NCBI GenBank assembly: GCA_964593365.1
Contig: CAZQGQ010000002.1
Location: 21,671-85,670 of the forward strand
DNA: 64,000 nt
Reading direction: 5' to 3'
Origin: an uncultured Candidatus Saccharibacteria bacterium
GTDB lineage: Bacteria; Patescibacteriota; Minisyncoccia; Phycocordibacterales; Phycocordibacteraceae
Each line of letters starts with the position of its first letter. Position 1 is the first letter of the stretch. Both the position numbers and the translations under genes were made by a program. The notes under the pieces were generated by a model that worked only from the letters and a program-made list of their open reading frames with translations, searched no databases and had not been told where the DNA came from. Positions 3,663-21,888 of this stretch are shown here, piece by piece.

Positions 3663-3665
3663 CGC

Positions 3666-7490: not shown

Positions 7491-7547
7491 ACGAGGCCTC
7501 TCAACTATAAGTATGGGTGAGGGCAGTGTAAGATTTGCGCAGAGCCT

Positions 7548-8657
7548 ATGAGAAAAACCATTTCCGGCGACCGCGTTTTCTTCTTTATCGTCCTCATTCT
7601 CGTTGTTGGAGGCATCGCTACCTTTGCCTCTGCTGCCCTTGGCCTTCTTGCGCGCCCAGACTCAGCGCTCGGCCGGCTTGCGTTCACCCAGCTTGCGCTT
7701 GGACTTATTCCGGGTGTGATCGCCCTTCTCATTCTTCGCTTCTCTCCGCAGGCATTGATCGCTCAAGGGGCACCATGGATCTATGGCATTACGGTTGTAG
7801 CGACAGCGCTCGTGTTTGTCCCGGGACTTGGAGAGACGGTGAACGGAGCCACGCGCTGGATTGATGTTGGGTTTACGACTATTCAGCCAGGGGAGTTCCT
7901 GAAGATAGGCGTGGTGCTCATGCTCGCATTTCATCTTGCCCGAGTGAAAGGGAAGCTGCATGAGTTTTCGCATGGCCTTATCCCGTTCTTGCTCATCGTC
8001 GGGGTTCCGTCGCTTATTCTCTTGCTCCAGCCAAACACCTCAACAGTGATCGTGATCGGCATCATGGCGACGGCGCTCTACATTCTTGCTGGCGCTCCGT
8101 TTCGCGATATCGCGATCATAGGCGTTATCGCGGTCGTATTGCTTGGCGTCCTTCTTATGATGCGACCGTACTTGATGGATCGAGTTGCGACGTACTTCGA
8201 TCCCGCCCGAGACCCGCTCTCTTCCGGATATCAGATCCAGCAATCCTTGATCGCCATTGGTTCCGGGCAGATCATTGGCCGCGGATTCGGGCAAAGCGCT
8301 CAGAAGTTTAATTATCTTCCTGAACCGGTAGGGGATTCCGTGTTCGCGGTCTACGGCGAGGAGTTCGGGTTTGTCGGCGCAGTGTTACTCATATTGTTAT
8401 TTACTGCCTTTGCAGCGCGCGGCTTTTACATTGCCTCTTATGCGTCCACTATGTTCGGTTCGCTCACTGCGGCGGGCCTGACGCTCATCATCGTCATCTC
8501 GGCGTTCTTGAATATCGGAGCGATGCTTGCCATTTTGCCATTGACCGGATTGCCGCTTCCGTTTGTCTCCCACGGAGGAACCGCACTTTTGGCGGCCCTG
8601 GCTTCGGTTGGGATCATCTTGAACGTCGCCGCGCACCGCAAATCTAAGCGGGCCTAG
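7548..8657 (+). CDS. ftsW: SEDS-family peptidoglycan glycosyltransferase FtsW/RodA
   Basis: 369 aa, 10 TM. GEFLKIGVVL and PLPFVSHGGTALL motifs. Lies between mraY and murG. Confidence 0.85.
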   Translation: MRKTISGDRVFFFIVLILVVGGIATFASAALGLLARPDSALGRLAFTQLALGLIPGVIALLILRFSPQALIAQGAPWIYGITVVATALVFVPGLGETVNGATRWIDVGFTTIQPGEFLKIGVVLMLAFHLARVKGKLHEFSHGLIPFLLIVGVPSLILLLQPNTSTVIVIGIMATALYILAGAPFRDIAIIGVIAVVLLGVLLMMRPYLMDRVATYFDPARDPLSSGYQIQQSLIAIGSGQIIGRGFGQSAQKFNYLPEPVGDSVFAVYGEEFGFVGAVLLILLFTAFAARGFYIASYASTMFGSLTAAGLTLIIVISAFLNIGAMLAILPLTGLPLPFVSHGGTALLAALASVGIILNVAAHRKSKRA

Positions 8658-8682
8658 AGTGTTATAATCGCGGGATACTGCC

Positions 8683-9834
8683 ATGAAAGTCGTATTTACG
8701 GGAAGCGGGACGGGCGGACATTTCTACCCCAACATAGCCGTCGCAGAATCCATGCGAGCTATTGCTCGTGAGCGCAGGCTCCTTATGCCGCGCCTCTACT
8801 ACCTTGCCCCCTCAGCTTTCGATCAGGAGGCCCTCTTTGAGAACGAGATCATCTTTATACGTTGCCCTGCAGGGAAGTGGCGCAGGTATTTCTCCTTCCA
8901 GAACTTCACCGACCTATTTGTAACCGGGCTTGGGTTTATCTCTGCGATCTTCTCGCTCTTTCGCATCTATCCGGATGTCGTCTTTTCTAAAGGAGGGTAT
9001 GCGAGCGTTCCGGTCGTACTTGCTGCGCGCATGCTTGGCATTCCGGTGATGATCCATGAGTCAGACGCAAAGCCAGGGCGCGCCAACATCATGGCTTCAG
9101 GTTTTGCTATGCGCATCGCGGTTGCCTTTGATAGCGCGTCTGCTTATTTTCCGAAGAAAACACGGAGCAAGATCGCACGTACTGGTATCCCGATCCGATC
9201 GGGACTCACGCGTCCAGAGCCTGAAGGTGCTCGCGAAGAATTGAAGCTCGATATGTCCGTCCCTACCATCCTCATTCTTGGAGGGTCCTCAGGAGCACAG
9301 CGTTTGAATGACATCGTGCTTGGGGCATTGCCCGAGCTTATCGAGGAAGCCAACGTCATCCACCAGACCGGGAAAGATAACTTCCAGGGAGTCGAGGCGC
9401 TTGCGCGCTTGGTGCTTGAAAAGGGAGGCAACGCAGCTCGCTACCATCCGTTCCCATTCCTTTCGGTTCTTTCGCTTCGCCGAGGCGCAGGTGCAGCTGA
9501 CCTCGTCATCTCTCGCGCAGGCTCGACGACCGTTGCTGAGATCGCGCTATGGAAAAAGCCGGCTATTCTCGTTCCTATTCCTGAGTCCGTGAGCCATGAC
9601 CAGCGTGCAAACGCCTATGCATACGCTAATACCGGGGCTGCCATCGTGATCGAGGAAGCGAACCTCACCGCTCACGTCCTTGCCTCTGAAGTGAAGCGCT
9701 TGCTCGGGGACGCCACACTTCGAAAGACGATGGGAGAACAGAGTTCAACGTTTGCAAACGCAAACGCCGCAAACATCATTGCCGAAGAGATCATCGCGAT
9801 CGGACTTTCGCATGAGCCGATCATCCCGTCATGA
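8683..9834 (+). CDS. murG: Undecaprenyldiphospho-muramoylpentapeptide beta-N-acetylglucosaminyltransferase
   Basis: 383 aa. N-terminal GSGTGGHFYPNIAV and C-terminal SRAGSTTVAEIA signatures. A TGTTATAAT hexamer lies 17 nt upstream. Confidence 0.9.
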   Translation: MKVVFTGSGTGGHFYPNIAVAESMRAIARERRLLMPRLYYLAPSAFDQEALFENEIIFIRCPAGKWRRYFSFQNFTDLFVTGLGFISAIFSLFRIYPDVVFSKGGYASVPVVLAARMLGIPVMIHESDAKPGRANIMASGFAMRIAVAFDSASAYFPKKTRSKIARTGIPIRSGLTRPEPEGAREELKLDMSVPTILILGGSSGAQRLNDIVLGALPELIEEANVIHQTGKDNFQGVEALARLVLEKGGNAARYHPFPFLSVLSLRRGAGAADLVISRAGSTTVAEIALWKKPAILVPIPESVSHDQRANAYAYANTGAAIVIEEANLTAHVLASEVKRLLGDATLRKTMGEQSSTFANANAANIIAEEIIAIGLSHEPIIPS

Positions 9835-11270
9835 GCTCCGTCGTCACTCGCTTTGCCCCAAGTCCAACTGGCTTCATGCACGTCGGAGGCGTACGCACGG
9901 CACTCTTTGCCTGGCTCTATGCAAGAAAGCACGGAGGTAAGTTCATCCTTCGCATCGAGGATACTGACAAAGCCAGGGAAGTGGCAGGCTCGATCGAGCA
10001 CATTATGGAGTCATTGCAGTGGATTGGCATCGAGTGGGACGAAGGGCCAGACAAGGGAGGACCGCACGCCCCCTATCTGCAGTCAGATCGTCTCGCTGAA
10101 TATAAAAAGTATGCACAGATCCTCATAGATAAAGGGCATGCATACACTGATCCCTTTACTGAAGCAGAGGTAGAAGTATTTCGTAAGCAAGCAGAAGCAG
10201 AGAAGCGTCCGTTCTTGTACCGCGAACATCGACCGGAAAATACCGAACCTTGGGACGGGACCAAGCCGCTTCGCTTCCGCGTACCGGAAATAAAGCGCTA
10301 CGAATGGAATGACCTGGCGCGAGGACGTTTGTCTGCAGGAGAAGAGGCGCTCGACGATTTCATACTTATAAAAGGAGATGGGTATCCGACCTACAACTTC
10401 GCGCATGTCGTTGATGACTTGTTAATGGAGGTGACGCACATCGTACGCGCAGAGGAATTCATTTCATCAACCCCGAAATTCCTTTCTTTGTATGACGCGC
10501 TTGAAATAAAGCGCCCGGAGTTTGCCACGATGCCGGTCATCTTAGGAAGCGAAGGGACGAAGAAGCTTTCAAAGCGAGACGGCGCAAAAGACATTCTTGA
10601 GTATCGCAATGAAGGATACCGTCCCGAAGCGATGATGAACTTCCTCGCGCTCCTTGGGTGGCACCCCGAAGGAGACCAGGAAGTGCTCTCGCCTGAGGAG
10701 CTCATTGCCGCATTTGATCTGACACGTGTGCAAAAGGGAGGCGCACGCTTTGACGAAGACAAGCTTCTCTTCTTGAATCGCGAGTGGCTGCGTCGCTTGA
10801 CCGACGAGGAATACATGGAGTTCGGAGGCCTTGAGGCTCCTGATCAGGAACGATTGCTGAAAGCCATTCCTTTGATCAAAGACCGTGTGCACACCTTTGG
10901 GGAAGCGAAGCTCATGCTAGAGGGCGAGCTCTCCTGCCTCTTTAGTGCACCAGCCCTAGACCCAAGCCTTCTCCTGACCAAGGAACTAGAGCCAGAGGGA
11001 ACCAGAACGGCCTTGGAAAGCCTTTTAGAGCCCCTAGGAGCCCTTCCTGAGGGCGTTTCGGGAGATGCGGTGAAGGAGGCCATAATGCCGTTTGCAGACG
11101 CTTTGGAGGCAAAGAAAAAGGGAGGCCGGGGAGCGGTTCTCTGGCCCCTTCGATACGCTCTTTCTGGAGTAGAGCGCTCGCCAGATCCCTTCACGCTTGT
11201 CTCTATTTTAGGCCCTTCCGAGAGCGTGAGCCGGGTGAAGAATGCTATCGCTCTTTTAGGTAGCAAGTAA
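9831..11270 (+). CDS. gltX: Glutamyl-tRNA synthetase
   Basis: 479 aa. APSPTGFMHVGGVRTALF (HIGH-region variant) and KLSKRDG (KMSKS) motifs. Confidence 0.9.
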   Translation: MSSVVTRFAPSPTGFMHVGGVRTALFAWLYARKHGGKFILRIEDTDKAREVAGSIEHIMESLQWIGIEWDEGPDKGGPHAPYLQSDRLAEYKKYAQILIDKGHAYTDPFTEAEVEVFRKQAEAEKRPFLYREHRPENTEPWDGTKPLRFRVPEIKRYEWNDLARGRLSAGEEALDDFILIKGDGYPTYNFAHVVDDLLMEVTHIVRAEEFISSTPKFLSLYDALEIKRPEFATMPVILGSEGTKKLSKRDGAKDILEYRNEGYRPEAMMNFLALLGWHPEGDQEVLSPEELIAAFDLTRVQKGGARFDEDKLLFLNREWLRRLTDEEYMEFGGLEAPDQERLLKAIPLIKDRVHTFGEAKLMLEGELSCLFSAPALDPSLLLTKELEPEGTRTALESLLEPLGALPEGVSGDAVKEAIMPFADALEAKKKGGRGAVLWPLRYALSGVERSPDPFTLVSILGPSESVSRVKNAIALLGSK

Positions 11271-11322
11271 GCCATACAAGCGATTATTGTCTCGTCGAGA
11301 ACGTCTAGGTATACTAGACGGG

Positions 11323-12597
11323 ATGAGACTGATCGCTCTTTTGCTTATTAGCGTTGCTCTTCTTGGAGCAATCGCCACGAGCACTCCACTTCCGACTCAT
11401 GCCGAGTCTATCGATGAGATCAAGGACCGGATTGATGAGATCAATCGCGAGCGCGCGAAGATAGACGAAGAAATCGCCGGATACCAGCGGGAGCTTAACG
11501 TCATCTCAGGACAGAAGCAGACACTCCAGTCTGCGATCCAGACGCTTGATGTCTCCCGCTCCAAGACTTCTGCGCAGATAAAAGAGATTCAAAACAAAAT
11601 CGGGGCAGCAACGCTTCGCCTTGAAGAGCTTTCATTTGAGATCACCGACAAGGAACAATCCATCGCGCTTGATCAGTCCACCGTCGCCGCATCGCTTCGT
11701 GCAATCGATATCGCGGACCAGGTTTCTTTTGTCGAGCGGCTTGTTGGAGCGGATGATTTTGCAGCAGCGTGGACCTCTATTGATAACCTCGCGACCTTGA
11801 ATCAATCGCTCCAGGAGCATGCTGCCTTGCTTGCAGGAGCAAAGATCGCGCTAGCAGAGCAGCAGACTTCCGTTTCTTCGACCAAGAATGAGCTCGCTTC
11901 TCATAGCGTTAATCTTGAAAGCCAGAAACAAGCGTTGGATATCAACCGACAAGGAAAGCAGACGCTTCTTTCACAGACCCAAGCGACCGAAAGCCAGTAC
12001 CAGGCAATGATCGCAGAGAAGCGCCGTCAGCAAGCCGCTTTCGAAGCCCAGCTCTTTACATACGAAGCGCAATTGAAACAAGCACTCGATCCTTCTTCCA
12101 TTCCAAGCGCAGGCTCTGGCGTTCTCGCATCTCCATTGGATAGCGTCTTTGTCACGCAGTATTTTGGTAGAACGGTTGATGCAAAGCGATTGTACGTATC
12201 TGGAACGCACGGCGGCATAGATTACCGAGCAACGATTGGCACGCCAATCAAAGCGTCTCTCACGGGAGTCGTCACCGATGTTGAAAGCACGAAGACTAAG
12301 AGTGGTTGCCAATACGGTAAGTGGGTACTCTTGAAACACGCGAACGGGCTCTCTACGCTTTATGGCCACCTTTCGTCAGTGAACGTTTCTCCAGGACAAA
12401 CTGTTTCAACAGGGGATCCGATAGGGCACAGCGGGGACACGGGATATGCAACCGGGCCGCACCTTCACTTTGGTGTGTATGCCACCTCCGGTATTCGTAT
12501 CGTTGACGCCTCCGCGCTTGGCTCTACGTACTGCGCAGGCATCAAGACCGTTGCATCTAACCCTGACGCATACCTTGATCCGATGTCGTATCTTTAG
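11323..12597 (+). CDS. M23-family peptidase with N-terminal signal peptide and coiled-coil (EnvC-like)
   Basis: About 425 aa from the ATG at 11323. The ORF track opens at a TTG at 11287. C-terminal HGGIDY ... GHSGDTGYATGPHLHFGVY LytM motifs. Upstream lies TTGTCT-17nt-TATACT-7nt-ATG. Confidence 0.8.
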   Translation: MRLIALLLISVALLGAIATSTPLPTHAESIDEIKDRIDEINRERAKIDEEIAGYQRELNVISGQKQTLQSAIQTLDVSRSKTSAQIKEIQNKIGAATLRLEELSFEITDKEQSIALDQSTVAASLRAIDIADQVSFVERLVGADDFAAAWTSIDNLATLNQSLQEHAALLAGAKIALAEQQTSVSSTKNELASHSVNLESQKQALDINRQGKQTLLSQTQATESQYQAMIAEKRRQQAAFEAQLFTYEAQLKQALDPSSIPSAGSGVLASPLDSVFVTQYFGRTVDAKRLYVSGTHGGIDYRATIGTPIKASLTGVVTDVESTKTKSGCQYGKWVLLKHANGLSTLYGHLSSVNVSPGQTVSTGDPIGHSGDTGYATGPHLHFGVYATSGIRIVDASALGSTYCAGIKTVASNPDAYLDPMSYL

Positions 12598-12627
12598 GTT
12601 CGAATCCTAGCTAGCCAGAAAAATAAG

Positions 12628-12652
12628 GAGCCCCCGGATATACCGAGGGCTC
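12628..12652 (-). terminator. Hairpin GAGCCCCCGG-atata-CCGAGGGCTC; on the minus strand it is followed by a T-run
   Basis: 10-bp stem with one mismatch. Plus-strand AGAAAAATAA immediately upstream gives TTATTTTTCT after the hairpin on the minus strand. Sits 7 nt past the stop of the minus-strand ORF 12659..12862. Confidence 0.5.
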
Positions 12653-12658
12653 AAGGTT

Positions 12659-12862
12659 CTATGCCACTCCTTTCTTAAACTTGTTACGAATCGAATCAAA
12701 GATCCACAGAGTCAGACCCCCGACTGCAATCGAACATATCCAAAGGAATATAACGACTTCATAGTAGACTCTTCTAATTCCAGTCGGCTTGTTCCTCACA
12801 TAGCGAACCGAGTCGTAAGAGATACACATGGATTTCTCCTTTGAAGATCCACTTCCTGCCAA
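12659..12862 (-). CDS. Hypothetical small membrane protein (67 aa)
   Basis: ORF with one hydrophobic helix (VVIFLWICSIAVGGLTLWIF). Bracketed by two terminator-like hairpins. Coding status uncertain. Confidence 0.3.
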   Translation of the reverse strand: MAGSGSSKEKSMCISYDSVRYVRNKPTGIRRVYYEVVIFLWICSIAVGGLTLWIFDSIRNKFKKGVA

Positions 12863-12892
12863 GGACCATTCCCTAGCAGGGTGGTAGACCCA

Positions 12893-12923
12893 AAAGAAAA
12901 ACCCCGTGGAGACGGGGTTTTTC
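12893..12923. terminator. Bidirectional rho-independent terminator AAAAACCCCGTGGAGACGGGGTTTTT
   Basis: Perfect 6-bp GC stem CCCCGT/ACGGGG with a GGAG loop, flanked by an A-run and a T-run. Confidence 0.65.
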
Positions 12924-13078
12924 AGATGAGTTCTAGAAAGAAATGTCTAGGATACAGAGAAAGCGCCACCGTCGGGGTTTACGATGGGCGGTACGGGAAG
13001 TGCAAAAATGTGCGCTTTCGTATTCATGTTTAAGCAGAATAGCTTAGAAGTTCTAATAAATCAAGTACGTTATATAGG

Positions 13079-13104
13079 TTTCAACATTGTCCCATACAGC
13101 CAGC
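13079..13104 (+). repeat. Island box copy 1 (TTTCAACATTGTCCCATACAGCCAGC)
   Basis: Followed by TATAAT, then 6 nt, then the ATG at 13117. Confidence 0.6.
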
Positions 13105-13116
13105 TATAATAACGGT

Positions 13117-13923
13117 ATGGACAGCACTTCTGCCTCCGACCTTACGAAACGCAATAAAGAAGTCATTCAAAGATTTATTGACTCGGTTAGAGACCGTGCA
13201 GACGGCGTTTTGCTTAGCGGGTCAAACGCCTGGGGAGCGGACTATGCGGTTACCGAGAAATCGGATATCGATCTCTTGGTCCTGGCAAAGGATATCCAAG
13301 GCATGAAGAAAATAATCGATTGCTATATCAGTAATAAATTACTTGTACCTAGGGAGCAAGAACGATTTGAAGCATTTAGCGCGCTATATGAGGAAGGAAG
13401 AGTAGAACAATTTTCTGTGATTGCAGACTATAAGGGTGTTCCGGTGAGCATAGATTTCTTTACCACAAAAACATTACAGTGGATCAGTTTCTTAACTTCA
13501 AAAAATACTGTTCTTCTTAACGGCGTGAGAGTGAGAGTCGTAAGCGAGTTGCGAACAAATCCTCCAAAAGCTTTCGGCTATTCTCTTGATGATTTACAAA
13601 GCTCAAAGAAACTTACCTATCATCCGGTGTTCGAAGAAATAAAAAGTCAGAAAGGCAATGTCTGTGGGTACCTCGCGCAAACTGCAGTCGATGCCTCTGA
13701 TGAACATACTTACTATCTTGGCGTCATGTCGTTTTTCCTTTGTGTCAGTCCGGTCGTGCTATTAGATAAAAACGGCGAACTGCAACGAGCTATACGAGAT
13801 TTGCGAACAAACATCTCAATTCTTTTGAAAGGGGAAGTTCCTCGCCATGTGACAAGAGAAGAACGAATGTCTGAGCAGGTCTTAGAAGAGGTAAAGAATG
13901 CCCTTAGTCCTAAGGGAGCCTAA
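13117..13923 (+). CDS. Pol-beta superfamily nucleotidyltransferase (antibiotic or nucleotide NTase-like; specificity unknown)
   Basis: 268 aa from the ATG at 13117. The track opens at a TTG at 13087 that lies inside the upstream box. GS-x14-DID motif (LSGSNAWGADYAVTEKSDIDLLVL) with a downstream acidic residue (VSIDFF). The helical C-terminal half is similar in size to ANT/Lnu-type or Abi-type NTases. GC is lower than in the core genes. Confidence 0.55.
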   Translation: MDSTSASDLTKRNKEVIQRFIDSVRDRADGVLLSGSNAWGADYAVTEKSDIDLLVLAKDIQGMKKIIDCYISNKLLVPREQERFEAFSALYEEGRVEQFSVIADYKGVPVSIDFFTTKTLQWISFLTSKNTVLLNGVRVRVVSELRTNPPKAFGYSLDDLQSSKKLTYHPVFEEIKSQKGNVCGYLAQTAVDASDEHTYYLGVMSFFLCVSPVVLLDKNGELQRAIRDLRTNISILLKGEVPRHVTREERMSEQVLEEVKNALSPKGA

Positions 13924-13928
13924 AAAGA

Positions 13929-13954
13929 TTCCAACATCGTCTCAGGCAGCCAGC
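13929..13954 (+). repeat. Island box copy 2 (TTCCAACATCGTCTCAGGCAGCCAGC)
   Basis: Lies between the convergent NTase and transglutaminase-like genes. Followed by a weak TATTTT. Confidence 0.55.
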
Positions 13955-14451
13955 TATTTTCTACGTTCATTCTCTAACCACTCGTTAAAAGCAGCATAGA
14001 ACTCTCCGTTGAGAGCAAGGTCTTTATTAATGACCTCCACGTTCTCATCGGCGATAATTGCAGCACTTTCTTTAATGGAGAACAATTTTAAACAAGAAAC
14101 CGCGATAGACGTGTTCGACTTTCCGTCCCACTCACTGACAGGAAGAATCATACTCAAAGAATTATCCCAGGTCGCATCGACATTAATCCAGTCTTTTTCA
14201 TTAAGTACCTCAAGGTATGCATGGGTAGAAGCATCTTCGTGAGCCTTTCCTGACACCTCAACGGGAAGATTGATATCGCTCCATTTGAAGGAACATACGC
14301 GCCATCGTACCTGAAGCCCCTCCTTCTCAAGAAGCGACTTAAGCTGCTTATGTTTACCGGTACAGGATTTGTCAGTTTCCTTCGAGGTTAGCGGAATTCG
14401 ATAGGGAATATCCCGAACCTGATTGAAAATCTCACGTAGGTCGGCTCTCAT
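13954..14451 (-). CDS. Transglutaminase-like / papain-fold cysteine peptidase domain protein
   Basis: 165 aa. Putative Cys nucleophile in SCTGKH, then the H-A-Y-L-E-V ... W-I-N-V-D-A-T-W-D block characteristic of the transglutaminase-like core (Cys-His-Asp). Upstream on its own strand lies TTGGAA-16nt-TAGCAT-6nt-ATG. Confidence 0.5.
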   Translation of the reverse strand: MRADLREIFNQVRDIPYRIPLTSKETDKSCTGKHKQLKSLLEKEGLQVRWRVCSFKWSDINLPVEVSGKAHEDASTHAYLEVLNEKDWINVDATWDNSLSMILPVSEWDGKSNTSIAVSCLKLFSIKESAAIIADENVEVINKDLALNGEFYAAFNEWLENERRK

Positions 14452-14479
14452 ACCCCCATGCTAGCAGGTGCTTGGCAAG

Positions 14480-14505
14480 TTCCAACATCGTCCCAGACAG
14501 CCAGG
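14480..14505 (+). repeat. Island box copy 3 (TTCCAACATCGTCCCAGACAGCCAGG)
   Basis: In the divergent gap between the transglutaminase-like gene and the zinc-ribbon gene, about 155 nt upstream of the ATG at 14661. Confidence 0.6.
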
Positions 14506-14660
14506 GTTGCATGGCTTAAGCGAAAGGAATCTATCGATGTGTACAACAAAGAATCAACTTACAGTCCGTCCACTCTTGCGGATTGATCTGTATGTAAATG
14601 ACCATAATCTTGTGTTTCCGATTTTAATATGTTTTAATCCAATAAACATAACTCCTACTC

Positions 14661-15071
14661 ATGCCTGATTATCAAAAGCCTCGCTTTGCCAAAAAACCCT
14701 TTAACCGTGGGGGTCAAGATCGTTTTAGCGATTCAAAAGAGATGCACAAAACTAACTGCAGCAAATGTAACAATCTGTGCGAAGTACCGTTTCGCCCAAA
14801 CGGCAAGAAACCAGTTTTCTGCAGCAACTGTTTCGTCAAAGACGATGCGCCCCGTCCTTCATATGGTCCGAAGCGTGATTTTTCTCCACGTCCATCTTTT
14901 AGCCCAGCGCCTTCTCGCGATGACCATGGGATGCAGGATCTAAAAATGCAGATGCAAGGCGTAAACGACAAGCTTACCCAGCTCATTCAACTTATGGAAT
15001 CTGCCCAGGCGCCTGTTACTGAGAAGGCTTCAGTAAAAAGGGTAGCCAAAGCAGGGACTAAGAAGAAATAA
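14661..15071 (+). CDS. Hypothetical zinc-ribbon protein with a low-complexity Pro/Ser linker
   Basis: 136 aa. CSKCNNLCEVPFRPNGKKPVFCSNCF resembles a topoisomerase-type C4 zinc ribbon. Basic C-terminal tail. Confidence 0.4.
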   Translation: MPDYQKPRFAKKPFNRGGQDRFSDSKEMHKTNCSKCNNLCEVPFRPNGKKPVFCSNCFVKDDAPRPSYGPKRDFSPRPSFSPAPSRDDHGMQDLKMQMQGVNDKLTQLIQLMESAQAPVTEKASVKRVAKAGTKKK

Positions 15072-15110
15072 TAGCCAGTATCTCCACAAGGCATATTCTC
15101 TAAGCAAGGT

Positions 15111-15136
15111 TCCAACGTCGTCCCAGACAACCGGCT
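15111..15136 (+). repeat. Island box copy 4 (TTCCAACGTCGTCCCAGACAACCGGC)
   Basis: Followed by TATACT, then 6 nt, then the ATG at 15153. Confidence 0.6.
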
Positions 15137-15152
15137 CGTTTATACTAGTCCT

Positions 15153-15557
15153 ATGAAGATATATCTCGGTTGTTCACTTACTCAAGCTCCAGAGGACTTT
15201 AAGACCGTTATTGGAGACTTAAAGAACAGGCTCCGGCAGGACTACGACGTATTAGACTTCATTGGTACCGTCGCTGGCACACCTCATGAGGTCTACAACT
15301 GGGATATTCACGAATGCGTTGCAAAGTGCGATGCCTTCATTGCGATTTGCGATCTGCCAGCCATAGGTCTTGGTTATGAACTCAGTGTCGCAGTCGAGAA
15401 GCTCAAGAAGCCGACGCTCGCTCTTGCGCATACGGATGCGAAAATCTCACGTCTTCTTCTTGGTATCAAACAGCCTCACTACATATTTGAACGCTACGAT
15501 TCTTTTGACGAGGTGGAAGACCGGATCAGATTATTCCTAAGCAGTTTAGAGAAATAA
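15153..15557 (+). CDS. Nucleoside 2-deoxyribosyltransferase-like (NDT-like) Rossmann-fold protein
   Basis: 134 aa. N-terminal MKIYLGCS and the block AIGLGYELSVAVEKLKKP match the NDT signature (KIYFAG ... GLGMELGYA..GK). Confidence 0.5.
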   Translation: MKIYLGCSLTQAPEDFKTVIGDLKNRLRQDYDVLDFIGTVAGTPHEVYNWDIHECVAKCDAFIAICDLPAIGLGYELSVAVEKLKKPTLALAHTDAKISRLLLGIKQPHYIFERYDSFDEVEDRIRLFLSSLEK

Positions 15558-15558
15558 G

Positions 15559-15584
15559 TTGCAAGGTCGGCCCAGACTGGGGCA
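15559..15584 (+). repeat. Island box copy 5 (TTGCAAGGTCGGCCCAGACTGGGGCA)
   Basis: The core CCCAG-A-CTGGG is a perfect inverted repeat here. A TTTATAT sequence lies 4 nt before the ATG at about 15616. Confidence 0.5.
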
Positions 15585-15615
15585 CGTGGTACTGTTTTAG
15601 AAACTTTATATCCCT

Positions 15616-16479
15616 ATGTCTGTCGCAATTGGTGTCTTGCTTGCCTTGATAGCCCTCGTCGCATGGGGTTTGGGGGACTTTTTAATTCAGAGAACTACCA
15701 GGCTGGTAGGTAGCGCCAAGGCTCTTTTCTTCATAGGAGTTGTTGCATTCGTTGTTTTGTTTCCGTTTGTACTACACGAACTTCCACATCTCACGTTCGC
15801 AAACTACCTCTTGCTCGGGACGCTGTCTTTAGCGGTTATCTTCGGAGCAGCTTTTGACTTCGAGGCTCTGCGCACCGGCAAAATGGCCGCTGTTGAACCA
15901 GTGGTGGGTCTTGAGCTTCCGATGACGGTCATTCTGAGCGTCATCTTCGTAGGTGAACATCTAACAGGACATCAGCTCTTTTGGATGCTTCTCGTGTTCA
16001 TTGGAACGGGGCTTACGGTTACAAAAAGCATAAGCCACTTGTCACAGGCATTCGAAAAGGGAGTGTGGCTCGCCTTTCTAGCAGCAATTGGTACAGCGTT
16101 AACTTCGCTCTTGGTTGGTATGTCGAGTCAGGAGATTTCTCCACTCGTTTCTATATGGTTTTCGCACGGGACGTTAGCGCTCGTGTCGGGTCTGTATATT
16201 CTTCGTTCTGGCCAGATGAGATCCGTTATACAAGATATCCGCAGCCACCCTGTAACTATTGGCTGCCAAAGCGTCTTTGATAACCTCGCGTGGATTGCTT
16301 TTGCCATTGCAGCAACCCTTATTCCGATCTCAATCGCTACGACCATTAGCGGGGGATATGTTGCCCTTGGGGTACTGCTTGGTATTTTCGTAAGCCGCGA
16401 GCGTGTTCGTGGTCATCAGGCGTTCGGTATTGCGCTTGTATCGATTGGCATTATTGCTCTCTCCTATTATTTCAGCTAG
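15616..16479 (+). CDS. EamA/DMT-family transporter
   Basis: 287 aa, about 10 TM. GDFLIQR-type EamA signature and two internally repeated halves. Confidence 0.7.
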   Translation: MSVAIGVLLALIALVAWGLGDFLIQRTTRLVGSAKALFFIGVVAFVVLFPFVLHELPHLTFANYLLLGTLSLAVIFGAAFDFEALRTGKMAAVEPVVGLELPMTVILSVIFVGEHLTGHQLFWMLLVFIGTGLTVTKSISHLSQAFEKGVWLAFLAAIGTALTSLLVGMSSQEISPLVSIWFSHGTLALVSGLYILRSGQMRSVIQDIRSHPVTIGCQSVFDNLAWIAFAIAATLIPISIATTISGGYVALGVLLGIFVSRERVRGHQAFGIALVSIGIIALSYYFS

Positions 16480-16484
16480 CAAGA

Positions 16485-16510
16485 TTTCCATGTCGTTCCA
16501 GGCAATTAAT
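16485..16510 (+). repeat. Island box copy 6 (TTTCCATGTCGTTCCAGGCAATTAAT)
   Basis: Followed by TACTATATT, then 4 nt, then the ATG at 16534. Confidence 0.5.
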
Positions 16511-16533
16511 AACAATCTGTTACTATATTCCGC

Positions 16534-17073
16534 ATGAAAGTCATCATCGCTTCCCACAATCCTGTGAAAATCAATGCCGCTAGGGAAGCGTTCAAGCAAA
16601 TGTTTCCGGGAGAGACATTTGAGGTTATAGGGACTGATGTTCCTTCAGACGTTTCTGACCAACCTATGACCGACACTGAGACGTATACCGGTGCTGTAAA
16701 CCGCGCGGAAAACGCTTCCCAGAAAGAGAGCGATGCTGACTTCTGGGTAGGAATCGAGGGCGGATTAGAAGAGAAAAGTGGAGATCTTGAATGTTTCGCG
16801 TGGGTGGTAATAAAAGATAAAGACGGAACGATTGGCAAAGGAAGAAGCGCCGCGTTCTTTTTGCCGCCTGCGGTAGCCCAGAAGATCCGTGAGGGAATGG
16901 AACTCGGGCATGCAGCGGACGCAGTTTTTAACGAGACCAACCTGAAGCAAAACCAAGGCACCGTTGGCATGCTCACGAAGGGATTAATCGAGAGGACGAA
17001 GTACTATGTCGATCCGGCGATTATGGCGTTAATCCCGTTTGCGAACCCTTCGCTGTTTGGAAAAACTGGCTAA
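16534..17073 (+). CDS. Inosine/xanthosine triphosphatase, YjjX family
   Basis: 179 aa. NPVKINAAREAF, DFWVGIEGG and GMLTKGLIERT closely follow the E. coli YjjX pattern. Confidence 0.75.
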   Translation: MKVIIASHNPVKINAAREAFKQMFPGETFEVIGTDVPSDVSDQPMTDTETYTGAVNRAENASQKESDADFWVGIEGGLEEKSGDLECFAWVVIKDKDGTIGKGRSAAFFLPPAVAQKIREGMELGHAADAVFNETNLKQNQGTVGMLTKGLIERTKYYVDPAIMALIPFANPSLFGKTG

Positions 17074-17087
17074 GCTCAATTCTTTGT

Positions 17088-17543
17088 ATGGATCAAGGCA
17101 TTCTAGACTACATTAAATCCCAGCGAATCTCCGTGTTTGGAATCGAGATGCTTGATGGTTCACCACATGGTGCAACAGTACATTTCGCACATCAAGAGAA
17201 CCCGTTAACTTTCATATTTGAAACGAGTTCGAAATACCGCAAGAGCGAGCCCTTGCTCGCCAACGACACAGCCCGAGCAACGCTCGTCATTGGATTTGTT
17301 GAAGGGCCGACTGAAAAAACATTCCAAGCAGACGGGATCGCAACGTTGCTTACGAGTGATGACCAGCTAAAGAAAGTCTATCTGTCGAAGTTTCCAGAAA
17401 AGGAAGCAAAGGCAGGAGATCCAGACAACATTTTCTTCTCCTTCACTCCAACATGGTGGAGATTCACTGATTGGGGCCGACCAGAAGGGAAGACCGTTAT
17501 CACTTCAGACGGCAAAGTAGTTGTCGCAGGGAAGTCTGCTTAA
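17088..17543 (+). CDS. Pyridoxamine 5'-phosphate oxidase-like (split-barrel, FMN-binding) family protein
   Basis: 151 aa. Size and hydrophobic periodicity resemble PNPOx-like or general-stress-protein-26 folds. Only 14 nt downstream of the ITPase gene, so probably co-transcribed. Confidence 0.4.
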   Translation: MDQGILDYIKSQRISVFGIEMLDGSPHGATVHFAHQENPLTFIFETSSKYRKSEPLLANDTARATLVIGFVEGPTEKTFQADGIATLLTSDDQLKKVYLSKFPEKEAKAGDPDNIFFSFTPTWWRFTDWGRPEGKTVITSDGKVVVAGKSA

Positions 17544-17545
17544 AG

Positions 17546-18160
17546 CTATTTAGTATCCCGGCTCTTCCAAAGGATTCGGCAGGCGAGCGAGCGGTACGGA
17601 GACCAGCAAGCAGATATCTTCTCAAGCTTTGCCCGTGACGGGTTCTTGATCATATACAGATCTTCAATAGAGCGTACGAGCCCAAGGTCTCCTGCAGAGA
17701 AAATGTCCGGATGCTGAAGCGCGAACATGAGAAACATCTCGCTCGTCCAGGGGCCAATGCCCCATACTGCAGTTAATGTTTCTTCTGCTTCTTCCGGGGA
17801 CTTCTTGCGAAGGGAAGGGAGGTCGAGTCCTTTGGTAACCGCTTTTGCGAGTTCTTTTAAGGTCTTTGCTTTTGCGCTGGAGAGTCCGGCTTTGCGAAGG
17901 CGGGGAAGAGAAGTCTTCAGTACTGACGAAGGAGTGACCTTGCCTCCGCACACACTTTCTACCCGAGCCCAAATAGCGTCCGCTGCCTTCACGGCTAGCT
18001 GCTGGCTTACGACTGATTCAGCAAGCGCCGCGAACAAGCGATCAGACCCGCGTACTTGAGGACGTCGCAGAATAAGTTTCCGGTGACTGTACGCAGCTTG
18101 GTACATGATTGGATCGACGCGCTTGAAGTGGCGAAGAGCGTTAGGGAGATCAGGATGCAT
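17546..18160 (-). CDS. alkA: DNA-3-methyladenine glycosylase II-like (HhH-GPD)
   Basis: 204 aa. Helix-hairpin-helix motif VWGIGPWTSEMFLMFAL followed by a catalytic Asp in SAGDLGL. Confidence 0.7.
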   Translation of the reverse strand: MHPDLPNALRHFKRVDPIMYQAAYSHRKLILRRPQVRGSDRLFAALAESVVSQQLAVKAADAIWARVESVCGGKVTPSSVLKTSLPRLRKAGLSSAKAKTLKELAKAVTKGLDLPSLRKKSPEEAEETLTAVWGIGPWTSEMFLMFALQHPDIFSAGDLGLVRSIEDLYMIKNPSRAKLEKISACWSPYRSLACRILWKSRDTK

Positions 18161-18167
18161 AGTGAAG

Positions 18168-18186
18168 TTGATTATACCCAGGAGCC
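18168..18186 (+). repeat. Degenerate island box copy 7 (TTGATTATACCCAGGAGCC)
   Basis: Retains the CCCAG-GAGCC core. Followed by TATATAAT, then 7 nt, then the ATG at 18224. Confidence 0.3.
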
Positions 18187-18223
18187 TTCCTTTTTACGCA
18201 CGTTAGGCTATATAATCCGTCGT

Positions 18224-18421
18224 ATGGTACGCCTCATTATCTGGATCGTTATTGGGCTTCTGGCCCTCTCATTTTTTGGCATCTCCCTTCGAGCACTCGT
18301 TGATAACCCAACAAACCAGGACAATTGGTCCTTTTTACTAGCCTTGCTCCGAGACGGCTGGGACTATATAACCGCTTGGTTTGAAGATGCATTCCGCCCG
18401 ATCGCTCAGTGGTTCGACTAA
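18224..18421 (+). CDS. Hypothetical small membrane protein (65 aa)
   Basis: Internal ATG of track ORF 18056..18421. The earlier part of that ORF is antisense to alkA. One TM helix (LIIWIVIGLLALSFFGI). Confidence 0.45.
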   Translation: MVRLIIWIVIGLLALSFFGISLRALVDNPTNQDNWSFLLALLRDGWDYITAWFEDAFRPIAQWFD

Positions 18422-18513
18422 ATCTTCATAAAGTCTTCATTGTTCTTGTTGTATTACTTGGGTACCGGGTTCCTTTACTGGAACCCCATTTGTCCATTTA
18501 CTTTTACCCTCGT

Positions 18514-18741
18514 ATGAAGACAGTGGCACTGGCAGCAACGCTTTTCCTCGTAGGACCCGCACTCGCAATGGCCGCCACGTACGCATATGTGAACACAGCA
18601 GGAGAAGTGATGTCTGTGGAAGCTTCAACAGCTACCCAGGCTCTCACTACAGCTCCAAACCTTCACGTTCATAGCGGCGTGATGCTTGTTGACGGCTCAG
18701 ATGATTCTGAAGTCATCGGAGACGACGTTCCTGGAACCTAA
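18514..18741 (+). CDS. Hypothetical small secreted protein (about 75 aa)
   Basis: Internal ATG of track ORF 18409..18741. Signal-peptide-like N-terminus MKTVALAATLFLVGPALAMA. Confidence 0.4.
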   Translation: MKTVALAATLFLVGPALAMAATYAYVNTAGEVMSVEASTATQALTTAPNLHVHSGVMLVDGSDDSEVIGDDVPGT

Positions 18742-18767
18742 AGAAAAGATAAACCGGTTTATTTGTT

Positions 18768-18797
18768 AAACTCCCGGAGTCATGACTTCGGGAGTTT
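18768..18797. terminator. 30-nt near-perfect palindrome AAACTCCCGGAGTCATGACTTCGGGAGTTT
   Basis: 9-10 bp stem AAACTCCCG/CGGGAGTTT with a self-complementary loop AGTCATGACT. Lies 27 nt after the stop of the small secreted protein. Could be a terminator or a protein-binding site. Confidence 0.5.
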
Positions 18798-18872
18798 AGC
18801 GTTTCTCCTTGCTTCATGAATAAGTTCACAAACTCGCTCATAATCGTCTTCGACCCTATACTTTAGAGACAT

Positions 18873-19739
18873 ATGCATACCTCACGTCTACATCTTTCAG
18901 TGTTAGGAATCCTCATGTTTTCTCTCATCTTCTTTCCAAGCAGCACCTTCGCTGCAGTTAAGGGAGAATTTGACCAGGCGTCCCTTATTTCAACGACAAC
19001 CCGCCCAACTTTGAGCGGCGAGATCTCTGGAGCCTCTGTCGTGCGTGTTCTTGTTGAAAACGAGAAGGGAAAGAATGTCTATAAGAGTAAGGACATCAAG
19101 GCAAAGGGCGGGGAGTGGAAAACCAAGGTTTCTAAGCTCCTCACCGTTGGAAAGTACAAAGTCACCCTCTACAGCGTTCAAAGCGGTAAGCAAAGCATTG
19201 TTACCACAGGAACCCTTACGATCTTGTCTAAGAAAGGAACTCCGACGACCTCATCCTCAGGAACAAAGAAGCCTACGACAAGCTCTGCGAGTGGCGGAAC
19301 TCTCTCAGCTTCTCCAGTCCCGCTTTTGTGGGGCGGTAACGCAGCGCACGGAGCCTCGATCCCTGTTGCATACGTGAAGCTTATAAATACTGGCAAGACC
19401 ACAACTTCAATTGATGGGTTCCGCCTTATAGAAAATGGATCCGCTCCTGACGATGTTGTTATCGGGTTCTCAGTAAGCGACGATAAGGGCGGCTCGCGCG
19501 CAACGATAGGAGGTTTCGAAGGATCAAAACAATTCAACAAAGGCTCAGCCTTCGTTCCGCTTCCTGCAACGCTTGCACCCGGACAGCTGCGCATCTTTAC
19601 GATAAAAGCGATTTTGAGTCGCGATAGCGGCATTCACTTTGGCAAACAACTTTTGATAGATGTCGCTGGAGTTGAAGGCAAAGCATCTACCAAAGGCACC
19701 TTCCCGATGCGCGGCACCACTTGGACGCTTACGTACTAA
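18873..19739 (+). CDS. Hypothetical secreted protein with signal peptide and Ser/Thr-rich linker
   Basis: 288 aa. N-terminal hydrophobic signal ending FAA. Central run TPTTSSSGTKKPTTSSASGG. Confidence 0.5.
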   Translation: MHTSRLHLSVLGILMFSLIFFPSSTFAAVKGEFDQASLISTTTRPTLSGEISGASVVRVLVENEKGKNVYKSKDIKAKGGEWKTKVSKLLTVGKYKVTLYSVQSGKQSIVTTGTLTILSKKGTPTTSSSGTKKPTTSSASGGTLSASPVPLLWGGNAAHGASIPVAYVKLINTGKTTTSIDGFRLIENGSAPDDVVIGFSVSDDKGGSRATIGGFEGSKQFNKGSAFVPLPATLAPGQLRIFTIKAILSRDSGIHFGKQLLIDVAGVEGKASTKGTFPMRGTTWTLTY

Positions 19740-20232
19740 CGAAGAACGCTCCAGCATAGCTAGAGCGTAAAAACCGACGCGAGGGTCAAGGTGGGCGATG
19801 TGCGGCGGGAAAGCAATTTACCGGACCCGCACAAACATCAACCCTCGCATCGGCGACGGCACGGGAAGCATTAGGGCCGAGAGGGAGGAACGGGGCGGGG
19901 ATGTTCCTAACTCGAAGCTTGTCTGCAACCCGTGACGCTTCGAGGATATTGGACTAGGGAACCAGCTGTGTCAAGAATGTTTTACTTTCAGTATTAGACA
20001 GGGAAGTCAGGTACAGAAAACGCCCCCGAAAAGTTGGAGGCGCAAATGCGGACATGGGAACCAAGGGAGCATAGTCGTGCTGCACGAATCGCGGTGTGGT
20101 AGCGGACACCATTTGCCTTCACGACTACCTTGGCCCCATGCCGCAGACAGATACTAGGCTTTATGAAGTATCTCGTCAAATGGAGGCTTCACTACAACAC
20201 ATCTCGGTCGACCGAGATTAGGTTCTAGAGCA
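19740..20232. other. 490-nt ORF-free GC-rich region with several perfect stem-loops (candidate structured ncRNA; class not identified)
   Basis: Nested helices GCGAGGGT(19778)/ACCCTCGC(19848) enclosing GTGCGG/CCGCAC. Further hairpins CTCGAAGC/GCTTCGAG (19911-19942) and AGGAAC/GTTCCT. An 18-bp palindrome lies at 20201-20218. On the minus strand the large stem is followed by GTCGGTTTTT. Confidence 0.3.
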
Positions 20233-20496
20233 GTGTATGCTTATAGAATGGACTTTAACGCAATGCCTAAGCTTATATGTGATGCCTGGCACCTGAATAA
20301 CAATCGGGTGTGGTTCTTCTTCGGTTTTACCTCAGGAACTGATAAATCAGCCCTCCTTCTCAGTCCTAAAGGCGCTAAGGGCTTCCTTCTCGAGCTCCAG
20401 AAGCGAATTACTAAGTACGAGAAAGACCATGGGGAGATAGATATGACCGGCCATCAAGCAGGAATTCAGTCTCCAATACAAATAAAGCCGGAGTAA
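20233..20496 (+). CDS. Hypothetical protein (87 aa)
   Basis: ORF directly downstream of the perfect palindrome. No recognisable motif. Confidence 0.35.
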   Translation: MYAYRMDFNAMPKLICDAWHLNNNRVWFFFGFTSGTDKSALLLSPKGAKGFLLELQKRITKYEKDHGEIDMTGHQAGIQSPIQIKPE

Positions 20497-20842
20497 AGGA
20501 TCAGAAGCCGTTTTCCTTGTTCCCTTAGGAGTACTTCGCAAAAGATATATTGTGCGAAGGTCTTATATTTTAGGTCAGATAAGCTTAGGGATCTCCGTTC
20601 AATATGTCTTCCCCACCTAATGAGCAGTCTTTATAACTTAAACTGGTTATGCGAACACTCGCTCTCATTTCTCCACTTTGTAAAAGATGTACTGCTATAA
20701 ATCCCCTCTCAGTAGGGTACTGGGGGAGAGTTGAGAGACGATTTAGGTAAAAAACTGAAAAAGATCTCTGACTCCCCTACCCTAATCTATTTCACTAAAA
20801 TCGACACCTTTAACATTTGAGTGTTCAGTTGAAAGAAATTAA

Positions 20843-21511
20843 CTAAAATAACTTCTTTCTACTTTCTTTCATCACCTTAACCCCTGGTTTCGCATACTCA
20901 ATTGATTCCATCCGAGCCAAATCTGCGTGAGGGACAGCTTCCAACTCCTCAGTTAATTCGCTACAAAGAACGTCAAATCTTGATTCAACGTACATTCTCG
21001 TTTTTGTAATCAGCAACTCAAGGTTTTGTATATTTTCTGAAGTATTCATTTCTGCACTAAAACTCACACCTATAATCTTAGCTATCTTGAAAGGCGCTCC
21101 TGGCTTATTAATCACTGCGCCTGGTAGACATTGCATTAAAGGGTTATCATCGTGAGCTATATTTTTATCCCTTAGATCCTTGAAAAACTCGAAAACTTCC
21201 TGACCCATAAGGTCTCCTTTTAGGACCTCTTCCTTGAATAGCTGCGTAGCTCTTGCATTATTTTTTCCAAAACATTTAAGAAAACTAATCACAGCCAACC
21301 GCCAGAAGACTTTTTGTTCAAGGCTTCTATCTTCTGCATTCTTCAAAGCTACCAAACAGTCTTGAGCTGTTATCAGATCGTGTCTGTGGAGAGTCATATC
21401 TGCCAACTCCTGGGCTTTCTTGCCTCGCAGCGCGACTGCTTTAAGTGCGTCCGGGAAGTCAGTTAGACGCAGACCTGTTCCCTCTTGGTGCTCAATGTTT
21501 AATTGCTGCAT
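20843..21511 (-). CDS. Hypothetical protein with a putative HEPN-like Rx5H motif (third gene of the AT-rich operon)
   Basis: 222 aa. Strong SD (GGAGGGGAAG) 8 nt upstream. Sequence FFKDLRDKNIAHDDNP contains R-x5-H. GC about 38-40%. Confidence 0.45.
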   Translation of the reverse strand: MQQLNIEHQEGTGLRLTDFPDALKAVALRGKKAQELADMTLHRHDLITAQDCLVALKNAEDRSLEQKVFWRLAVISFLKCFGKNNARATQLFKEEVLKGDLMGQEVFEFFKDLRDKNIAHDDNPLMQCLPGAVINKPGAPFKIAKIIGVSFSAEMNTSENIQNLELLITKTRMYVESRFDVLCSELTEELEAVPHADLARMESIEYAKPGVKVMKESRKKLF

Positions 21512-21551
21512 ACCAGCATCCTACTTCCCCTCCCTCTCTAAACAAACATAT

Positions 21552-21887: not shown

Positions 21888-21888
21888 A

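Follow-up and report, generated by a model that had tools for sequence, protein, structure and literature searches.

A repeated box separates small accessory genes in a Saccharibacteria chromosome: a probable cassette-like array

Introduction

Four small genes stand close together between positions 13117 and 15557 of a 64-kb stretch of DNA from an uncultured Candidatus Saccharibacteria bacterium (positions 21,671 to 85,670 of contig CAZQGQ010000002.1; this whole stretch is called the window, and its positions are counted from its first letter). The genes encode a nucleotidyltransferase of the DNA polymerase beta (Pol-beta) fold, called NTase below, a transglutaminase-like (papain-like) protein (TGL), a zinc finger protein (ZnR) and a protein resembling nucleoside 2-deoxyribosyltransferases (NDT-like). 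A conserved box of about 30 nucleotides (nt), RGTTCNAACATCGTCCCAGACRGYCAGC, recurs in the gaps around them. Do these genes work together, or do they merely share a site in the chromosome? The original prediction, made from the letters of the window, took the first view: the four genes were read as a candidate nucleotide-based conflict or modification module, and the shared box was regarded as an argument for functional coupling.

The cluster is probably a short array of independent single-gene accessory units, low in guanine plus cytosine (GC), in the chromosome of a member of the Patescibacteria (candidate phyla radiation, CPR), with the box as the junction element. The best reading has four or five consecutive units lying between a conserved mraY-ftsW-murG-gltX-M23 block on one side and EamA and NTPase_I-T genes on the other. 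This cassette-like reading is based on several observations: the box holds one orientation next to reversed genes, the cargo is heterogeneous, the GC content is low, and the genes differ in their histories. CPR genomes are tiny, and the way in which accessory genes are acquired and exchanged in them is poorly understood. A description of the box motif, or of such arrays in CPR bacteria, was not found in the literature.

Arrangement of the genes and the box

The NTase gene (13117-13923, forward strand, 268 amino acids) and the TGL gene (13954-14451, reverse strand, 165 amino acids) are convergent, with exactly 30 nt between their stop codons. They are followed by the ZnR gene (14661-15071, 136 amino acids) and the NDT-like gene (15153-15557, 134 amino acids), both on the forward strand. 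The four open reading frames (ORFs) have the coordinates given in the original prediction, which had also noticed the 30-nt convergent spacing. The gene calls for all four agree in as many as 22 public contigs from the same population.

Searching the window for the 23-mer TTCCAACRTCGTCCCAGACARCC with up to three mismatches gives four matches, at 13079, 13929, 14480 and 15110, all on the forward strand, where 0.00 are expected from 100 shuffled sequences. The copies extend to about 33-37 nt. Copy 1 (TATATAGGTTTCAACATTGTCCCATACAGCCAGCTAT, 13071-13107) precedes the NTase gene and overlaps a sigma-70-like promoter match that consists of TCAACA and TATAAT separated by 18 nt (13081-13110, 10 of 12 positions). 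Copy 2 (13921-13957) fills the gap between the NTase and TGL genes and overlaps both stop codons. Copy 3 (14472-14508) is the closest to the consensus, with 28 of 29 positions; it is situated 21 nt from the start of the TGL gene, on the opposite strand to it, and about 150 nt before the ZnR start. Copy 4 (15102-15138) is followed by TATACT (15141-15146). A fifth, degenerate copy (AAGTTGCAAGGTCGGCCCAGACTGGGGCA, 19 of 29 positions, forward strand, 15556-15584) begins within the NDT-like stop codon (15555-15557), taking in its last two bases. After copies 1-4 it is the best match to the box anywhere in the window, both strands included, and its place is in the next intergenic gap. A sixth candidate at 16482-16510 (16 of 29 positions) is indistinguishable from background.

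The box points the same way beside reversed genes as elsewhere, both in the window and in the related contig L052. Its distance to the following ATG varies, being 38, 43 and 181 nt in the window, 35 nt in contig L072 and 55-116 nt in contig L078. The box noted in the original prediction is real, although it is not simply an upstream element, as copies 2 and 3 show.

An inverted partner of the box was not found. RNAalifold predicts no base pairs in the consensus of 17 copies, and single-stranded DNA folding of both strands gives z-scores of -0.6 to +0.8, showing no excess folding energy. The box is thus not an attC site (a hairpin of this kind was considered and rejected), an intrinsic terminator or a structured RNA; it is an unstructured sequence motif.

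The TATAAT and TATACT hexamers end 6 nt before the ATG codons of the NTase and NDT-like genes, and neither gene has a Shine-Dalgarno sequence, suggesting that at least these two genes have their own promoters and leaderless transcripts. The D3 repeats of L078 (3995, 4612, 6643 and 7674), with the hexamer TGGTATACT, show the same pattern: here and at the two sites of the window (13105-13119 and 15141-15155) the -10-like hexamers end 5-8 nt before the ATG without a Shine-Dalgarno sequence, so that the units seem to be transcribed as leaderless mRNAs. A sigma-70 promoter as the whole explanation of the box was rejected: the region has five promoter-like sites compared with 5.7 in shuffled sequences, and only copy 1 fits.

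The GC content is 0.455 over the array (12598-16533), as against 0.526 upstream (1-12597) and 0.537 for 22900-64000. Just downstream of the array it is intermediate, at 0.495. The NTase and TGL genes have values of 0.43 and 0.44.

Part of the box also occurs in an apparently unrelated place. A stretch of 25-27 nt (AAGGTTCCAACATCGTCCCAGACAAC, or the form ending in ...AGC; 14477-14505 and 15107-15135 of the window) is identical to a stretch within a prophage gene for a C5 DNA-cytosine methyltransferase, which is present in dozens of viral contigs and accounts for about 50 of 60 inspected IMG/VR matches (loci such as L090, L114 and L155). Read on the opposite strand, the shared stretch gives VWDDVGTF, which lies in the methyltransferase between its motif I and PCQ motif. 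The rough chance expectation of such a match is 1e-2 or less, and no biological link is seen. The matches to viral contigs in a 15-mer scan were set aside, as they come mostly from this one methyltransferase family and no viral contig has an array of boxes. A match in L099 lies inside an apparent coding sequence and was dismissed as a chance hit.

The box in related contigs

The fullest comparison is provided by L078, a 7.8-kb contig carrying an NDT-like homolog of 72% identity. It has 12 copies of the box, all on one strand, with the consensus AAAAGTTCGAACATCGTCCCAGACGGTCAGC, and nine of these begin 0-25 nt downstream of the preceding gene's stop codon. The 11 boxed genes include HAD, CYTH, NDT, GrpB, S51 peptidase, Ldh_2 and dCMP deaminase genes. 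A separate motif, TGGTATACTTT-N5-8-ATG, is situated between box and gene. Since the box separates 11 unrelated genes in this contig, it marks the junctions of units and not a regulon specific to the genes of the window.

Contig L078 and a sister contig have an identical NDT protein (P0017) and differ by one gene, that of GrpB. The boxes flanking GrpB in L078 start at 3959 and 4575, 616 nt apart, the second being 56 nt before the ATG of the S51 gene (4631). In the sister contig a 163-amino-acid gene and the S51 gene are also 56 nt apart. The same spacing in both contigs indicates that the GrpB difference is exactly one box-to-box unit.

Other contigs have fewer copies. One exact 23-nt copy stands directly before the NDT homolog of L072. 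In L052 the order is box, reversed orf157, box, NTase homolog and degenerate box. The NTase homolog of L057 has a box variant of its own, RGTTCTAACATCRYCCACTAGCTCGCGC, on both sides. The box is absent from the other loci of about 68 surveyed, roughly 60 of them from Patescibacteria. In a k-mer survey, junction repeats of a comparable kind turned up only in L078 and in an array of contig L068, described below.

Gene neighborhoods of the homologs

Each of the four proteins has its own evolutionary history, and elsewhere their genes stand in different neighborhoods. Their closest homologs belong to Patescibacteria, labeled mostly as Saccharibacteria or Saccharimonadia.

The neighborhoods of NDT-like homologs were compared at 50 Patescibacteria loci (L002-L051) from different species representatives, with up to 8 kb on each side. 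Homologs of NTase, TGL and ZnR are found within 8 kb at none of these loci. The neighbors, clustered and confirmed with Pfam, are instead genes for thyA (31 loci), DHFR (26), dCMP deaminases (21 and 10), glyA (SHMT, 15), tmk (14), dcd (14) and MazG-like proteins (11). The three closest relatives, at 71-74% identity, stand beside NUDIX, pyrophosphatase-like or CYTH genes.

TGL homologs occur in four unrelated contexts. In L069 the neighbor is a phosphoribosyltransferase gene, in L074 an HTH/DUF2178 pair, and in L076 CYTH and YunG genes. In L068, from a Moraniibacteriota chromosome, the homolog appears to be one cassette of an integron-like array. In the last of these (CP065011.1, Ca. Moraniibacteriota), positions 3500-12501 of the locus have the appearance of a classical integron, with a tyrosine recombinase gene at 3729-4541 on the reverse strand. 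The repeats at the ends of its cassettes, GTTAGAT... / ...ACATCACCTAAC, are inverted and agree with the attC cores, GTTRRRY / RYYYAAC. A 300-nt cassette with an 82-amino-acid ORF is present in four identical copies, and the TGL homolog is one of the cassettes (6001-6501). A SMODS gene (1821-2708) lies upstream of the array, about 3.3 kb from the TGL homolog.

Seven further contexts are available for NTase homologs, and all of them differ. The homolog is accompanied by MazG and NUDIX genes in L001, with MazG between NUDIX and NTase, and by a NUDIX gene three genes upstream in L054, beyond two membrane-protein ORFs that presumably encode HtpX and a CDP-alcohol phosphatidyltransferase. L055 has a PsbP-like gene upstream and a bona fide PF05014 gene 62 nt downstream. 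The neighbors are the reversed orf157, a gene without an assigned family, in L052, a methyltransferase gene in the contig of P0006, and SET and GIY-YIG genes in L057; L075 is a short contig. Only L055 repeats a part of the combination seen in the window, and its PF05014 gene belongs to a subfamily different from the NDT-like family of the window (hhalign probability 2.8%).

The co-occurrence of the NTase and NDT-like families, put forward in the original prediction as a check, is thus seen at none of the 50 NDT loci, L055 alone having a PF05014 neighbor, and the full combination is found nowhere else among the surveyed loci. A lack of linkage elsewhere and an independent distribution of the NDT-like gene are what that prediction had named as counting against a single module, and this is largely what is seen. 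It had also supposed for that case that the NTase would be a known resistance or antitoxin enzyme, and this it is not. The pair in L055 is what remains in favor of the prediction.

Long co-oriented runs of small unrelated genes surround the NTase homolog in L055 (4196-9700) and the NDT homolog in L072 (7800-17700). The array-like stretch of L055 has no box, and that of L072 has the single copy mentioned above.

Comparison with integrons and possible mechanism

Each unit of the array consists of one small accessory gene in either orientation, with the box between units always pointing in the same direction. Units would be gained and lost at the box, either through the action of a sequence-specific recombinase or by homologous recombination from one box to another. 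Such a region would behave as an integron cassette array does, though with no attC hairpins and no linked IntI, and the box may be a recombination site.

The array resembles the cassette arrays of sedentary chromosomal integrons in its small, mostly co-oriented and functionally unrelated genes. As in integrons, there is one junction element per gene, the orientation of this element is kept beside reversed genes, and the content differs apparently one unit at a time. Heterogeneous single-gene arrays are seen in the window, with four to five units, and in L078, with 12 junctions and 11 genes, to which the coordinates of the GrpB difference may be added. A further likeness is that a TGL homolog is an apparent cassette in the L068 array, which has a tyrosine recombinase. 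Unlike the integron element, however, the box is only about 30 nt long, asymmetric and unstructured, and lacks the R''/L''-L'/R' inverted repeats. Neither IntI nor another recombinase was found nearby (19 ORFs by Pfam; the window by tblastn with one query). The units also seem to bear their own promoters and so would not depend on a single Pc.

A more specific proposal is that this CPR lineage has a non-integron gene-cassette platform, in which units with their own promoters would be shuffled at an asymmetric, unstructured, double-stranded site of about 30 nt (RGTTCNAACATCGTCC followed by a lineage-specific 3' half). The recombinase would be encoded elsewhere, and NTase, TGL and NDT-like genes would be mobile cargo. 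This is put forward tentatively, as a possibility that falls well short of likely. If the box is a recombination site, the cassette system would be mechanistically distinct from integrons. A junction-repeat array with NTases, NDT/DNPH1-like, NUDIX, CYTH and GrpB proteins and deaminases would also provide a simple searchable marker of the flexible gene pool of CPR bacteria.

Several observations weigh against the cassette-like array. A tblastn search of the 64-kb window with the L068 integrase gave nothing, Pfam shows no recombinase among the 19 ORFs of 11287-25946 on both sides of the array, and the gene tables of L078 and of its 33-kb sister contig contain none. Copy 1 overlaps a good sigma-70-type promoter match, which leaves room for a transcriptional role of the box. 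The sample is small, as the box is known from five contigs of a few related lineages, and the GrpB difference was deduced by arithmetic on gene coordinates and not from the DNA of the sister contig. In the co-occurrence test, diverged copies of the short ZnR domain could be missed by tblastn. One NTase homolog (L055) truly adjoins a PF05014 gene and two further ones (L001 and L054) are near NUDIX or MazG genes, so that some link of the NTase with nucleotide metabolism is possible. With five contigs at hand, the array is an interesting lead and not an established system.

Alternative interpretations

The box might instead be a cis-regulatory element, either an operator or upstream promoter element of a lineage regulon or a protein-dependent terminator or insulator, and the boxed genes would then be co-regulated yet biochemically independent. 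This is rather unlikely. The 10-of-12 match of copy 1 to a sigma-70-type promoter is accompanied by a TATTTT retained at equal spacing in copy 2. The box is also better conserved than coding DNA: it is identical at 23 of 23 positions between the window and L072, whereas the NDT proteins are 74% identical, which fits a protein-binding site under selection. However, the distance from the box to the start codon ranges from 35 to 181 nt, and L078 has a separate TGGTATACT-type promoter between box and ATG, in poor agreement with an operator or a -35 element. Placement 0-25 nt after a stop codon, as for most copies in L078, is terminator-like; yet no co-oriented gene directly precedes copies 1 and 3 of the window or copy b of L052, and the box has no intrinsic-terminator hairpin. 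As a promoter element, copy 2 would drive transcription antisense to the TGL gene. The failure to find a recombinase, either with the L068 integrase in the window or among the neighboring ORFs, favors a regulatory element. The lack of a common functional theme among the boxed genes and the mapping of a whole-unit gene difference from box to box do not.

A partnership of two genes is improbable. Here the NTase would serve nucleotide salvage or sanitation together with enzymes of the NDT superfamily or of the NUDIX/MazG kind. It might, for instance, tag or activate a nucleoside or nucleotide on which the partner would act; TGL and ZnR would be bystanders. Two of the eight NTase contexts (the window and L055) have an NDT-superfamily gene within three genes, but the two genes come from unrelated subfamilies. 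Two other contexts (L001 and L054) have a NUDIX gene nearby, with MazG between NUDIX and NTase in L001, and the house-cleaning enzyme NTPase_I-T is encoded two genes downstream of the NDT-like gene of the window. Nevertheless, the partner is different each time, and the neighbors in the four other contexts are SET, GIY-YIG, methyltransferase or unidentified genes. Small nucleotide-metabolism genes are also common in such arrays, which inflates chance adjacency.

The least probable interpretation, and a very improbable one, is the module of the original prediction, in which the product of the NTase would be a nucleotide signal or adduct, to be sensed or cleaved by the NDT-like protein, TGL would be a processing or effector protease and ZnR would be included: the NTase, Cys-His-Asp and NDT-superfamily folds do all have intact catalytic residues, the genes are adjacent and foreign-looking in GC content, an NTase homolog adjoins a PF05014 gene in L055 and a TGL homolog lies about 3.3 kb from a SMODS gene in L068, but the set or any pair of it is absent from the 50 NDT loci, the four TGL contexts and six of the seven NTase contexts, PADLOC gives no meaningful hit and PHROGS none, the NTase is unlike CD-NTases (best CdnE match at rank 49, probability 0.09), the NDT family is embedded in thyA-folA-tmk-dcd neighborhoods, the PF05014 gene of L055 is of a different subfamily (2.8%), and the genes are separate units, one of them reversed. 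In this locus adjacency and a shared intergenic motif mimicked a new nucleotide-signaling defense system, while the context shows unrelated accessory genes; this calls for caution.

The encoded proteins

The NTase belongs to a rare family without a Pfam match, and is a member of the Pol-beta nucleotidyltransferase superfamily by its motif, third carboxylate and alpha/beta core. The same 268-residue product is present in a public collection (P0001). An alignment of 11 family sequences has G35, S36, D50, D52 and D113 as invariant residues. The motif is GS-x13-DID (G35 S36 ... D50 I51 D52), and D113 is the third acidic residue that completes the NTase signature; the original prediction had recognized the signature correctly, with a spacing of x14. 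In a set of 5.8 billion sequences the family forms 11 clusters. When its profile was run against 1.84 billion representatives, 60 matched at E <= 1e-30 and 189 at E <= 0.001, and remote relatives in this search bear PF01909 or PF18765. Most members of this wider family (P0185, P0191-P0232) have about 400 residues, with an extra N-terminal helical region of about 120 residues that lacks a Pfam match.

Sequence searches of Pfam, NCBIfam and the Protein Data Bank (PDB) give no match to the NTase. In its AlphaFold model, which has a predicted local distance difference test score (pLDDT) of 92.4, the N-terminal 120 or so residues match Tam41 and the ANT(4')/kanamycin nucleotidyltransferase (KNTase). 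These matches have a probability of 1.00 for the N-terminal core, yet their template-modeling (TM) scores are only 0.33-0.35. Superposition on ANT(4') gives a root-mean-square deviation of 7-8 Å with a TM score of 0.35, so the genuine match is confined to the NTase core. The beta-rich domain (residues 130-217 or thereabouts) and the C-terminal helices have no good structural counterpart in the fold search. The NTase therefore resembles ANT(4')/KNTase, Tam41 and NTP_transf_2 (PF01909) in having hG[GS]-x13-DhD and a third acidic residue, and differs in its beta-rich and C-terminal parts.

Three assignments of the NTase to known systems were rejected. As a CD-NTase of CBASS it has no SMODS or other Pfam hit and matches no PADLOC model of CBASS; the only CD-NTase among its fold matches is CdnE (6wt8), at rank 49 with a probability of 0.09 and a TM score of 0.16. 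As an antitoxin of the AbiE or MNT-HEPN type it has only a PADLOC match to PDC-S09 (E = 0.0013, residues 8-60). The MNT antitoxins have a HEPN partner, whereas the neighbors of the window NTase are TGL and a small membrane-like ORF, in which no HEPN or AbiEi domain was found. As an aminoglycoside or lincosamide resistance enzyme (ANT/Lnu) it has no sequence hit in Pfam, NCBIfam or the PDB, only its core fold matching. The original prediction had not been able to assign the cluster to a described defense system, in agreement with these results. PADLOC, which it had suggested as a check, gives no meaningful match, the best being the E = 0.0013 hit to about 50 NTase residues, and PHROGS, Pfam and NCBIfam provide no defense assignment for NTase, TGL or the NDT-like protein. 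The most likely role of the NTase is that of a nucleotidyl-transferring enzyme.

The NDT-like protein is a member of the nucleoside 2-deoxyribosyltransferase superfamily (PF05014), which includes DNPH1. Its sequence alone matches DNPH1/Rcl with E = 0.1, and the protein itself is under all Pfam and NCBIfam thresholds. The family profile, when compared with the PDB, matches DNPH1/Rcl at E = 3.7e-8 across the PSxGxGYELG region, followed by CMP hydrolases of the blasticidin/mildiomycin type and by NDT (1f8x and 4hx9), and PF05014 is hit by 17 of 29 family members. The GLGYEL...KKP motif, from which this relationship had first been proposed, is thus borne out. D51 and E76, the latter in GLGYE, are invariant in the family, and E76 aligns with the Glu of GVGYELG in Rcl/DNPH1; the Asp and Glu of Rcl aligned to these two residues belong to its catalytic region and have a catalytic role there. 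The family shares with DNPH1/Rcl and the NDTs the GxGYELG-region match and the invariant Asp and Glu. Unlike DNPH1, it has an N-terminal YxGCSLT(xAP) in place of the GSIRGG phosphate-binding loop, and the HMMER alignment of the profile to DNPH1 leaves the N-terminal 45 residues unaligned. A TIR or SLOG effector, as in Thoeris, was rejected: PF05014 matches instead, TIR_2 is hit once at E = 0.0097, and PADLOC has no hit. The protein is most likely an N-glycosidase or a deoxyribosyl-transferase acting on deoxynucleosides or deoxynucleotides in pyrimidine deoxynucleotide housekeeping. In Patescibacteria its family is linked to thyA, folA, tmk and dcd, which suggests that a step of thymidylate or deoxynucleotide metabolism has gone unrecognized.

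TGL is a member of the transglutaminase-like cysteine protease superfamily, an assignment made at the level of the superfamily only, as PF01841 of Pfam has no hit. The Cys-His-Asp residues noted in the original prediction are C30, H77 and D92, invariant in 30 sequences. The model (pLDDT 97) has its best fold matches with TglA, the putative cysteine protease 3isr, arylamine N-acetyltransferases (NATs) and transglutaminases, the best TM score being about 0.4. TGL keeps the Cys-His-Asp of TglA, 3isr and the NATs; unlike them, it is a minimal stand-alone protein of 165 residues. The family is widespread in Patescibacteria, with one member labeled as a Woesearchaeota archaeon. TGL is most likely a Cys-His-Asp hydrolase or amidase.

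ZnR has a CxxC-x17-CxxC treble-clef zinc finger and a basic low-complexity tail. It exceeds the curated cut-offs of PF23477 (zf_Tbcl_2, 52.1 bits compared with 27) and TIGR04272 (CxxC-x17-CxxC, 52.6 compared with 36), which confirms its description as a four-cysteine zinc protein. It most likely serves as a nucleic-acid-binding zinc finger protein.

Flanking regions

Upstream of the array are mraY, ftsW, murG, gltX and an M23 peptidase gene, and downstream are EamA, NTPase_I-T, a PNPOx-like gene and a HhH-GPD glycosylase gene. These flanking genes place the cluster in a bacterial chromosome, which, to judge from the closest homologs, is probably that of a CPR bacterium whose genome measures about 0.65 Mb. 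There is no tRNA gene within 20 kb of the cluster that would point to tRNA-linked integration.

The 519 nt that separate the conserved M23 peptidase gene from copy 1 of the box contain a small hydrophobic ORF of 67 amino acids (12659-12862, reverse strand). A gene is called here in public assemblies too (5543-5713 of L058), and the array may have this ORF as its first unit. It is flanked by terminator-like hairpins at 12628-12652 and 12896-12923. An Rfam scan for structured RNAs and riboswitches finds only a terminator-like RsmY fragment at 12898-12926. At the other end, the gene of an EamA-family transporter (15616-16479, forward strand, assigned by Pfam) may be the last unit, the box-like stretch 3' of it not being significant.

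Directly 3' of the M23 stop codon, positions 12592-12620 read AGGTTCGAATCCTAGCTAGCCAG, which is box-like with a deletion of about 5 nt and also resembles the T-loop of a tRNA. This GGTTCGAATCC-like stretch was rejected as a tRNA, since ARAGORN finds none there. RGTTCGMRTCY stretches resembling it (the D2 family) occur in L078 between some of the boxes and the next genes.

About 7 kb from the cluster, at 22914-23663 on the reverse strand, is the gene of a LOG/SLOG-family protein (PF03641 Lysine_decarbox, PF18306 LDcluster4), a Rossmann protein of the nucleotide N-glycosidase type, adjoining an RNase_T-family exonuclease gene. The lowest GC content of the window, 0.423, is found at 19800-22400, a stretch with three or four ORFs without a Pfam match (20843-22404) that may be another foreign insert.

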